From Candidatus Aminicenantes bacterium (lineage in GTDB: Bacteria > Acidobacteriota > Aminicenantia > Aminicenantales > Aminicenantaceae): DNA of 64,000 nt. The stretch is taken from positions 6,065-70,064 of the forward strand of contig JAGGYH010000100.1 of the NCBI GenBank assembly GCA_021162615.1. The letters run 5' to 3'. Below the pieces are notes generated by a model. The model worked only from the letters and a program-made list of their open reading frames with translations, had not been told where the DNA came from and did no database searches. This document shows, piece after piece, positions 48,328 to 50,723 of the stretch. Each line of letters opens with the position of its first letter. Position 1 is the first letter of the stretch. The translations under genes and the position numbers were made by a program.

Positions 48328-50415
48328 ATGGAACTTTTACTGGAGATAAATACAGAAGAGATGCCGGCTCTTCATGTGAAAACAGCTTTGGACCAGCTAA
48401 AAGAAGGGCTTCACAGAAAGCTCGTGGATGCTCACCTGGTTGACAAGACGGACGAACCCGGAGATATTCAGACCTTCGGGACATGCAGGCGGCTGGTTTT
48501 GTATGCTGAGATCGTATCAAAGCAGCAGCCCAAAGAGGAAGTCGTTATAGGGCCTCCCAAAAAAGCCGCATTTGATGAGAACAACGATCCTACCTCTGCA
48601 GCTAAAGGATTTGCTAAGGCAAACAAGGTTAGAGTCAGTGACCTGGAGATCATAAAAAATGAAAAAGGCGAATATGTCGGGGTCAAAAAATCAATCAAAG
48701 GGAAAAAGGCTGTCGAACTGCTGAAAAATATTCTTCCGGAGCTGATTAAAGAGCTTTCTTTTCCCAAAATGATGAGGTGGGGGGAGAGTACCCTGCGTTT
48801 TTCCAGGCCGATTAAAAATATTCTTTGTTTGGGCGATGGGAATCCCATCCCATTCACAGTCGGAAATATCTCAGCAACTCATTATACATACGGGCATAAG
48901 CTGTTTTTTCCGGAGAAAATCGAGGTCAGCTCATTTAAGGAATACTTATCCAAACTCAAACAACAAAGGGTCATTATAGATGCTGGGGAAAGAAAAAAAA
49001 GGATTGAAGAACAGGTAAAGGAAAAGCTCGTTCCTCTGGATGCAGAAGTATATCCTGATAAAGAACTTCTGGATAAGGTCACTTATGACGTGGAATATCC
49101 TTATGTTTTCATGGGGGAGTTCCCTAAGGATTATCTGAAATTACCCATAGAGGTCCTCAGTACAGCCATGAAAGTGGGGCAGAACCTTTTTTCAGTAGTG
49201 GATAAAAACAACAAACAGCTTCCTGTGTTTCTTGGTGTTTCTGACGGAAGCCCTGATAAAAAGCTGCTTGTAAAGAAAGGGAACGAAAGAGTGCTGAAAG
49301 CAAGACTGGAGGACGCGCGTTTTTTCTGGACACATGATTTAGAAAAACCTCTGGCAGAAAAGAGATCCCTTCTCAGCAGGATTCTTTATCAGGAAAAATT
49401 GGGAAATTATAAAGAGAAGACGTTAAGAATTAAAGGGCTCGCTCAATTTCTTTCAAATAAGACAGGTGTTAAAGAAAACAAGTATCTGCTGCAGTCTGCT
49501 GAGCTGTGTAAAGTGGATCTGATCACGGAAATGGTCAGAGAGTTTCCCTCTCTTCAAGGAAAAACCGGAGGCCTTTATGCGAAAGAGCAGGGCTACCCGG
49601 AACAGGTCTGGAAAGCAGTTTATGAACACTACCAGCCGACCAGCCAGGACGATCCTTCTCCTTCCACTCTGAACGGGGCCATCCTCTCTATTGCAGATAA
49701 AATTGATTCCATAGTAGGAGCATTCGGGATCGGGATAGAAGTTACAGGGTCCAAAGATCCTTTTGGATTAAGAAGAAACGCTCAAGGTATATGCAGGACT
49801 ATTCTTGACAAAAAAATGAGCTTTTCCTTATCCTGTTTGGTCCATCAGGCGATCTCTGAATACAAAAATCTTTTAGATAAATCCAGTCAGGATATCATAA
49901 AATACTGTGAAGCCTTTTTTAAGGACCGCCTCAGCCATCTTTATGAGAAACAGGGCTATCGGTATGATCTGGTTAATGCAGCCCTTGGAGCAGGATTTGA
50001 TAATATATATTATTCTTATCTCAGGCTGAAAGCTCTGGATGCGATCAAGGACCGCCCGGAGTTCAATTCATTGATCATTGTTGTTAAGAGAGTGAACAAC
50101 ATACTCAGAGGGCAGCCGAAAAGGAGCATGAATTCGGACTTTTTTATCGAAAAAGAAGAAATAAGACTGTACACGGATTATTCCACGCTGAAGGAAAAAA
50201 TAATGCCTTTGATATCAACAGGGGATTTCAGCAAAGCCCAGAATTATATACTTGAGATCAGATCAACCATAGACAGCTTTTTCGATCATGTCCTGGTGAT
50301 GGCAGATGATCCGAAGATAAGAAAAAACAGGCTTGCGCTTCTTCGGGCTGTCAGCCAGCTGTTTTCAAGGGTTGCGGACTATTCCCAAGTAGTCGTGGAT
50401 ATGGATAATTTATAA
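48328..50415 (+). CDS. glyS: glycine--tRNA ligase beta subunit
   Basis: 695 aa, EIxTEEMP N-terminus, follows glyQ. The last 7 codons plus stop lie in a triplicated direct repeat. Confidence 0.9.
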   Translation: MELLLEINTEEMPALHVKTALDQLKEGLHRKLVDAHLVDKTDEPGDIQTFGTCRRLVLYAEIVSKQQPKEEVVIGPPKKAAFDENNDPTSAAKGFAKANKVRVSDLEIIKNEKGEYVGVKKSIKGKKAVELLKNILPELIKELSFPKMMRWGESTLRFSRPIKNILCLGDGNPIPFTVGNISATHYTYGHKLFFPEKIEVSSFKEYLSKLKQQRVIIDAGERKKRIEEQVKEKLVPLDAEVYPDKELLDKVTYDVEYPYVFMGEFPKDYLKLPIEVLSTAMKVGQNLFSVVDKNNKQLPVFLGVSDGSPDKKLLVKKGNERVLKARLEDARFFWTHDLEKPLAEKRSLLSRILYQEKLGNYKEKTLRIKGLAQFLSNKTGVKENKYLLQSAELCKVDLITEMVREFPSLQGKTGGLYAKEQGYPEQVWKAVYEHYQPTSQDDPSPSTLNGAILSIADKIDSIVGAFGIGIEVTGSKDPFGLRRNAQGICRTILDKKMSFSLSCLVHQAISEYKNLLDKSSQDIIKYCEAFFKDRLSHLYEKQGYRYDLVNAALGAGFDNIYYSYLRLKALDAIKDRPEFNSLIIVVKRVNNILRGQPKRSMNSDFFIEKEEIRLYTDYSTLKEKIMPLISTGDFSKAQNYILEIRSTIDSFFDHVLVMADDPKIRKNRLALLRAVSQLFSRVADYSQVVVDMDNL

Positions 50416-50723
50416 AAAATGCCGATACATTATTCATTATTAGACTTAATTTTTATAATTATTGTTGTTTATTTTTTAGGCCTGACAATTGAGATGAATG
50501 ATAGATGGCCTATTTTATCTTATTATCGGCATTTTTTACCTTACAGGCGAGCCGATCTCACTGTATCTGCATCGTTACAGGGTACTCGCGGTGAAGGACC
50601 ACAGCTTCGCACCCTGTGCCTCGCATCTACAGCAATTTCGACTCGTAAATTATCAAATCGTGGATATGGATAATTTATAAAAAATGCCGATCAACCAAAT
50701 CGTGGATATGGATAATTTATAAA
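50393..50723 (+). mobile_element. Family-1 copy E (element 50417-50657, core 50544-50642) plus an 18-bp termini-only remnant, bracketed by three copies of a 24-bp direct repeat
   Basis: TCGTGGATATGGATAATTTATAAA occurs at 50393-50416, 50658-50681 and 50700-50723. The first two repeats extend identically to 34 bp (..AAATGCCGAT). Confidence 0.8.

Follow-up and report, generated by a model that had tools for sequence, protein, structure and literature searches.

A polymorphic tandem array of miniature transposable elements at the 3' end of glyS in a Candidatus Aminicenantes bacterium

Introduction

Pneumococcal BOX elements follow the plan boxA-(boxB)n-boxC, and strains differ in the number of the internal unit of about 45 bp, for which slippage is the presumed cause. 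Precise excision of Tn10 and Tn5 proceeds by replication slippage between flanking direct repeats and is helped by inverted repeats. Integrative elements with attachment (att) direct repeats at gene 3' ends show tandem accretion, as described for integrative and conjugative elements with cis-mobilizable elements (ICE/CIME) and for integrative mobile elements exploiting Xer (IMEX) at dif. Rickettsia palindromic elements are inserted in frame and give C-terminal residues to proteins. Here, we describe an array of miniature inverted-repeat transposable elements (MITEs) at the 3' end of glyS, the gene for the glycyl-tRNA synthetase beta subunit, in a Candidatus Aminicenantes bacterium (NCBI GenBank assembly GCA_021162615.1). 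The window, i.e. the whole stretch of DNA analysed, comprised 64,000 nucleotides (contig JAGGYH010000100.1, positions 6,065 to 70,064 of the forward strand). Coordinates are window positions unless another contig is named.

The glyS array resembles each of these systems in part. As in BOX, it is a modular intergenic repeat with a short variable unit (42 bp here), but this unit is a deleted transposon copy together with a gene end and not a dedicated module, and the array includes a full-length element. With Tn10/Tn5 excision it would share a loss by direct-repeat exchange around an inverted-repeat structure that leaves one repeat and an intact target; here, however, the repeats are 24–34 nt long and include part of the element, and the number of units changes as well. 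A duplicated gene end flanking an insert, tandem units and single-repeat alleles are common to the array and to ICE/CIME and IMEX, whereas the glyS locus has no recombinase, an insert of 241 bp, and a repeat that is homologous to the inverted repeat of a transposon. The Rickettsia elements are likened to the glyS case for their in-frame contribution to a C-terminus.

The elements are closest to MITEs derived from insertion sequences of the IS1380 family (DDE_Tnp_1_4, PF13701; types ISEcp1 and IS1380): their inverted repeats start with CC and are nearly those of IS1380-family elements in related Aminicenantes genomes, and their target-site duplication (TSD) has 4 nt and a TTAA bias. Small, non-coding and numerous copies with many internal deletions are likewise found here. 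In contrast to such MITEs, the outermost bases of the glyS copy are altered and its TSD is not recognisable, and the family in this genome has a conserved folded core without an Rfam match and no cognate transposase found in the assemblies of the genome or the genus. For a C-terminus supplied by a MITE there is a published precedent, QMITE2 at enhC of Coxiella burnetii (PMC5896051). There, too, in-frame insertion of a MITE at or close to the end of a coding sequence has provided C-terminal residues, the stop codon lying at or next to the element, and QMITE2 copies are conserved between strains, which is a further likeness to the glyS case (PMC5896051). The glyS case differs in that just 4–5 residues are concerned, that the gene encodes an essential synthetase, that the element end is fixed across a genus, and that it is tandemly repeated downstream.

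Results

Structure of the glyS array

A 24-nt repeat (R) was present in three exact copies at 50393–50416 (R1), 50658–50681 (R2) and 50700–50723 (R3), and the identity of R1 and R2 extended to 34 nt (50393–50426 and 50658–50691). R1 and R2 are separated by 241 nt (50417–50657) belonging to an element termed E, R2 and R3 by 18 nt (50682–50699) termed e. Repeats and gaps had been described in these lengths by an earlier sequence-only reading of the window and were confirmed. That reading took R for the last seven glyS codons and the stop; the stop and V-D-M-D-N-L are indeed included, followed by one further base, but of the preceding Val codon R holds only two bases. A fourth full-length R was not found in the 2.85-Mb genome with up to three mismatches, the remaining matches lying within canonical elements, in an internal segment, and at a few unrelated loci; chance is thus excluded as an origin of the triplicate. 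The locus consists of a full MITE copy (E), an internally deleted copy (e) and a left-end stub (R3), arranged as follows:

48328–50415, plus strand: glyS, glycyl-tRNA synthetase beta subunit, 695 aa (PF02092, DALR); its last five codons and the stop fall within the MITE left end.
50393–50426, plus strand: R1, consisting of the spacer TCGTG, the left inverted repeat (50398–50412), the TAA that is the glyS stop (50413–50415) and the start of the left hairpin arm, as assigned by alignment to the canonical left end.
50398–50659, plus strand: E, a MITE copy that is complete from the left inverted repeat to the right one, a divergent member of a genome-wide family.
50413–50538, plus strand: left module of E, with 15-nt inverted arms (50413–50427 and 50524–50538, 100% complementary) around a variable loop of 96 nt.
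50539–50645, plus strand: conserved folded MITE core, a long irregular hairpin with 34 predicted pairs.
50646–50659, plus strand: right inverted repeat of E, which is the complement of the glyS tail and is degraded in this genome.
50658–50699, plus strand: 42-bp unit of R2 and e, an internally deleted copy in which the left repeat, a further 14 nt and, from the right end, about 8 nt are left.
50700–50723, plus strand: R3, spacer and left-end stub (solo left inverted repeat and TAAA), abutting the promoter of the next gene.
50727–50756, plus strand: promoter-like site (TTGACT, 18 nt, TAAATT) of the PilZ gene, conserved in all genus members.
50808–51251, plus strand: gene of a PilZ-domain protein (PF07238), the downstream neighbour.

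R is long because every tandem unit starts with the same spacer and left end, not because a long target was duplicated. The earlier statement that a transposon with a TSD of 2–5 bp does not produce such a layout therefore needs to be modified: the family itself makes a 4-nt TSD, and the long repeat is correctly seen as something else, namely the spacer and left end of each unit. Spacers in the array measure 3–7 nt. The right repeat, a 3-nt spacer and the left repeat (the last being the glyS tail) form a near-perfect palindrome of 33 nt.

The MITE family

With the canonical 281-bp copy (11499–11779) as query, blastn returned 295 high-scoring segment pairs in the metagenome-assembled genome (MAG; 146 contigs). 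The plan of the family was derived from an alignment of 23 full copies. It starts with the left inverted repeat CCTGACCTATTCAT and the conserved arm TAAAAAAATGGCGAT; a variable loop (about 95 nt) separates this arm from its complement, and a conserved core (about 110–130 nt) and the right inverted repeat ATGAATAATCCAGG follow. The terminal inverted repeat can be written as CCTG(A/G)..TATTCAT with its complement. Copies are small, non-coding, numerous and dispersed, and many are internally deleted. The 4-nt flanks were identical in 26 of 70 copies (shuffled sequences: mean 10, maximum 17), with TTAA by far the commonest. The family is an ordinary transposon with a 4-nt TSD and mostly TTAA as target.

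The right 142 nt of E had more than 40 matches in the genome (83–92% identity, many at contig ends), with 86–92% identity of the core to more than 40 other copies, and its left module was unique in the genome and not conserved between species. Orthologous copies of E were found in L032, L034, L062, L075 and L066. Across orthologous and paralogous copies, 8 of the 34 predicted pairs of the core fold showed compensatory double changes. The arms of the left module co-vary as well: in relatives, AAAAGATGCCGAT is paired with ATCGGCATCTTTT, and this genome has A paired with T. Rfam yielded no family at gathering threshold over the window and no relevant one at the locus with expect values up to 10; at 50300–50850 nothing had an expect value below 3.

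Several further features of the family were noted. The loop of the canonical element (11566–11599, and the same place in others) holds an internal segment about 70% identical to R and the left arm GGATATGCATACTTTTTAAAAAAATGAC, which may be an old nested or duplicated left end. Genome-wide, 299 matches to the left-end motif stood against 163 to the right-end motif, the two patterns differing in stringency; together with observed stubs, this excess suggests frequent solo left ends. The family lies at the start or end of many MAG contigs (e.g. C24, C46, C49, C50, C55, C91, C103, C109, C110 and C118). It is a main cause of assembly breaks, and the true copy number is underestimated.

Among 61 genomes from the same bacterial family, 33 encoded a transposase of the IS1380 family (PF13701). 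The ends of IS1380-family elements in related genomes (CCTGATCTATTCAT, flanked by TTAA or TTAG) are nearly those of the MITE. At L087, L092 and L094, PF13701 genes are followed by the ends CCTGATCTATTCATAAAT with TTAA, TTAG or CTAA as flanks, which agree with the MITE consensus in 16 of 17 bases.

The glyS tail as left end of the element

The E arm TAAAAAATGCCGAT and its partner at 50524–50538 are homologous to the canonical arms, and the preceding GATATGGATAATTTA therefore occupies the position of the left inverted repeat. It is identical in 10 of 12 positions to the variant TGGATTATTCAT of that repeat, and the glyS tail stands in the same register to the TAA and hairpin arm of the element as the canonical left repeat does. 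The right end of E pairs with the glyS tail at 15 of 15 bases in the sister species G004 and has decayed to TAAATTATCAAATC here. From this alignment, the left inverted repeat at glyS appears to be the codons D-M-D-N-L and the stop the conserved TAA of the element. The earlier suggestion that the C-terminus of GlyS may be derived from the element is thus borne out by the placement of the tail inside the left inverted repeat.

The tail VVDMDNL was found in all 8 same-genus genomes, with DMDQL in one, and tails in other genera are variable (VVEG, VVEGENK, VVEGEKAEKS).

Other genes are concerned as well. Eleven pattern matches, about nine of them convincing, were open reading frames (ORFs) of 100–485 codons that read through the left repeat and stop at the same TAA. 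Examples in this genome lie at C23:7951, C49:28680, C114:2014 and C126:8871, and 14 further ORFs of the genome stop at the TAA of a flanking TTAA-type target. Many genes thus owe their stop or tail to a MITE end.

The array in related genomes

Same-genus genomes and metagenome contigs had the following arrangements downstream of glyS:

G004 (L032): R-E-R-e-R with diverged repeats (two differences in R2, four in R3).
G005 (L034) and the metagenome relatives L062 and L071: R-E-R-e-R in which e is longer and keeps 23 nt from the left end and 14 nt from the right.
G002: E, lying at the end of a contig.
G007: remnant and an unrelated MITE.
L075: R-E-R stub and another insert.
L066: two full units whose left modules differ and whose cores are near-identical, followed by one disrupted unit and a stub.
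G006 and G003: single R, with the promoter directly after it.
G008: unrelated spacer of 30 nt.

The layout R-E-R-e-R is thus common to G004, G005 and the genome studied here (G000). The longer e of G005 and L062, with 23 nt left of one end and 14 nt of the other, proves e to be a copy with an internal deletion, and the 18-nt piece had rightly been read as the two extremities of the element joined. In the collapsed alleles L033 and L035, an R3-type stub with its flank makes up the entire spacer. In the glyS tree, the clade of G005/L062, G004, G006 and G000/L072 had 100/100 support with G006 nested within it; because G006 lies among array-bearing species, its single R is a secondary collapse and not an unoccupied site. 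The 30-nt spacer of G008 was tried as a decayed remnant, but in a semi-global alignment its score did not exceed that of shuffled sequences.

A subfamily with the glyS-type repeat was not found elsewhere in the genome. In the species-representative and metagenome collections, the 20-nt pattern matched just the glyS loci of the genus, apart from chance matches in unrelated organisms.

In G007 (L036), a MITE of a different kind (about 250 nt) sits inside the left-repeat copy of the remnant, about 20–300 nt past the end of glyS. Its inverted repeats measure about 27 nt (GGAAGCATTTCTAATTCCGTGATAGAG and complement). With this second MITE, the spacer between glyS and the PilZ gene is a hot spot for several element families.

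The two full units of L066 (Ga0180434_10024769, reverse strand, 2930–3590) stand in tandem and have near-identical cores and right ends. Their left modules are unrelated, with arms of the GCCTGCA type in one and of the CGCCGAT type in the other, which suggests that the left module, bounded by its hairpin, is exchanged separately from the core.

Polymorphism and exchange between repeats

Contig L072, which is 99.78% identical to the window over 7.4 kb, has R-E-R-e-R-e-R, and the extra unit carries a single-nucleotide polymorphism (SNP) of its own. L070, from the same metagenome (99.87% identity over 1.5 kb), has R-e-R-e-R and no E. In the public run X10, a contig of 1101 nt joins 50392 to 50658, with 34 bases common to both sides, which corresponds to an R-e-R allele. 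Among the contigs of four runs, none covers the E-specific stretch 50441–50502, such holes in contig data proving nothing, and a unitig at 50658–50723 has branch points that fit arrays of at least two e units. The two JGI contigs and the X10 joint are the strongest evidence of polymorphism. Thus, on contigs at least 99.8% identical to the window, the 42-bp unit is present once or twice, with or without E, and it is present once on the X10 contig; the number of identical 42-bp units in any single short-read assembly is uncertain. Alleles with one, two, three and four repeats exist. In every allele the glyS end is intact and GlyS unchanged.

These alleles and the joint of 50392 to 50658 over 34 bases uphold the earlier proposal of a tandem duplication followed by internal deletion, with gain and loss driven by homology. 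An old inert duplication had been named as the finding that would speak against it. The arrangement is old, being shared with sister species, one of which has diverged repeats; inert it is not, since it is polymorphic within the species.

The repeats also carry lineage-specific changes. A synonymous change of TTA to TTG in the Leu codon is common to R1 and R2 in L075; in L066 it is present in R1, R2 and R3 and absent from the R4 stub. In G000, a G-to-A change in the arm is found in both R1 and R2, and the partner arm has the compensating T. Changes of one lineage that are common to several repeat copies show that the repeats exchange sequence after speciation, and this exchange accounts for their identity here although the layout is old.

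Similar layouts at other loci

Other loci with a similar repeat-element layout, for which a search had been suggested, were found at C45, C66, C71, C74, C110, C117 and C144. Exact direct repeats of at least 18 nt, about 250–265 nt apart, bracket family members on C45, C66, C71, C94, C101, C117 and C144. Head-to-tail junctions with a 4-nt spacer occur on C45, C71, C74 and C144, and full copies preceded or followed by a 20–50-nt stub of their own left end on C66, C71, C110, C117 and C144. Termini-only, internally deleted forms are common and have many different breakpoints. With the same structures elsewhere, the glyS array is a typical product of the behaviour of the family. No common breakpoint was found for the left-end stubs at other loci, which are 20–50 nt long and often end in the left hairpin arm; they are too inconsistent to indicate a mechanism.

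Discussion

Origin of the array

The array probably arose by an old insertion, head-to-tail duplication, internal deletion and truncation of the last unit, with repeat slippage or unequal recombination continuing to the present. An IS1380-type MITE would have landed at the very end of glyS in an ancestor of this Aminicenantes genus, so that its left inverted repeat would encode the last 4–5 residues of GlyRS-beta and its TAA would serve as stop. The element and a few preceding bases may then have been duplicated head to tail. One copy would have lost its interior and become the 18-nt remnant, and the last one would survive as the left-end stub next to the PilZ promoter. Replication slippage or unequal homologous recombination between the 24–34-nt repeats would since have added, removed and homogenised units. 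As every product regenerates the same glyS end, this variation would be tolerated by, or neutral for, GlyRS. The account starts from the observed anatomy, family membership and age of the arrangement, from the polymorphism within the species and from the lineage-specific substitutions common to repeat copies. From these we infer the order of events, the origin of the first duplication, and slippage or recombination, not an enzyme, as the agent. The first duplication may have been a second insertion beside the resident end or a slippage event.

Several points weigh against this account. The tail VVEGENK of the nearest outgroup genus has the same length, and the glyS end might thus be a native tail that merely resembles the repeat. 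The glyS copy lacks a recognisable 4-nt TSD, each unit being flanked by GTG or TCGTGGA; with the outermost repeat bases also differing from the canonical CC/GG, the original insertion cannot be reconstructed. Since the G008 spacer has no significant similarity to the remnant, the array is not datable to the root of the genus. The MAG itself had no PF13701 match that could represent a cognate IS1380-type transposase. Among 9 genomes of the genus one had PF13701, without matching ends; these MAGs are incomplete and absence is unproven. The alleles without E rest on short-read assemblies and Logan contigs. Finally, the account does not explain how the promoter-adjacent stub arose.

Alternative explanations

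The array might instead have grown by repeated transposase-mediated insertion beside an existing end (into a flanking target or TSD, or from a circle or dimer junction) and have been homogenised later. Head-to-tail junctions elsewhere whose spacer has the exact TSD length of 4 nt agree with such serial insertion, as do the two full units of L066 with different left modules and near-identical cores; besides, the preferred target TTAA is regenerated beside every copy. All glyS units, however, share a locus-specific inverted repeat that is absent from the rest of the genome and from the species-representative collection, whereas newcomers would bring canonical ends. The glyS spacers of 3–7 nt also depart from 4 nt, and no cognate transposase was found in the genus. 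We regard serial insertion as unlikely, although it is the best placed of the alternatives.

[quoted passage not shown] Such a site would account for gene-end direct repeats that bracket an insert, with tandem accretion, and for the near-perfect 33-nt palindrome; single-R alleles resemble unoccupied sites, and the outgroup tail has the same length. But the 241-bp E contains no gene, and contig C106 had no PF00589 match, the four tyrosine recombinases of the genome lying elsewhere. With no recombinase on the contig and housekeeping genes as neighbours, a site-specific system is unlikely. Moreover, R sits at the position homologous to the left repeat of a family that is otherwise a 4-nt-TSD transposon, and the single R of G006, nested among array-bearing species, is a loss and not a virgin site.

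It is quite improbable that the 33-nt palindromic junction is a true recombination site, at which MITE units would be shuffled in and out by an enzyme, be it a tyrosine recombinase of the host or an IS1380-type transposase that works on abutted ends. If it were, the 3' end of glyS would be a small cassette array with left modules that can be swapped as in L066, and presence or absence of E could switch 3'-end processing of glyS or read-through into the PilZ gene.

Very little speaks for an unusually long TSD of 24 nt per insertion, made by widely staggered cuts, of which the repeats would be two successive examples. Identical direct repeats do flank E and e directly, but the family makes a TSD of 4 nt and R1 and R2 share 10 more nt of element-internal sequence. 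The right end of the element is complementary to R, part of which hence belongs to the element, and this complementarity led to the rejection of the long TSD. An assembly artefact, i.e. an expanded or mis-joined repeat in a short-read MAG, is the least credible explanation and was rejected: many contigs of the MAG end in the repeat family and counts of identical 42-bp units are hard for short reads, but the architecture recurs in independent assemblies, L072 for the same species and L032, L034, L062, L071 and L080 for sister species, the sister assemblies have species-specific substitutions, and the extra unit of L072 has its own SNP.

Implications

The array is a well-documented, ordinary kind of mobile-DNA rearrangement; it points to no new molecular mechanism, and its novelty is modest. 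Of interest is a transposon end that appears to serve as coding end and stop of an essential aminoacyl-tRNA synthetase gene and is kept across a genus. The tandem transposon copies make this gene end a concertedly evolving repeat whose copy number varies within one population. Repeat-mediated collapse leaves a site that looks as if it had never been occupied, which could mislead the dating of MITE insertions by presence and absence. For these uncultured hydrothermal-sediment bacteria, the spacer is a strain-level length marker. Annotators and assemblers should be aware of gene ends that are embedded in repeats.

Additional observations

A simple scan of 50250–50900 detected no terminator, and a role of E as terminator of glyS is thus unsupported. 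An ORF of 84 codons (50419–50673) covers E and enters R2; it had no Pfam match, was not conserved between species and is probably spurious, but an annotation could mistake it for a gene. In two sister species, L075 (4610–4690) and L066 (reverse strand, 3455–3550), the left-end stub is followed by low-complexity inserts in which CCATTTC and CACTTTTCAC are abundant; these may represent another short repeat family. On the contig, glyQ lies directly upstream of glyS, and the genes of the neighbourhood are gcvP, glyQ, glyS, the PilZ gene and the gene of an FAD-binding flavoprotein (PF00890).

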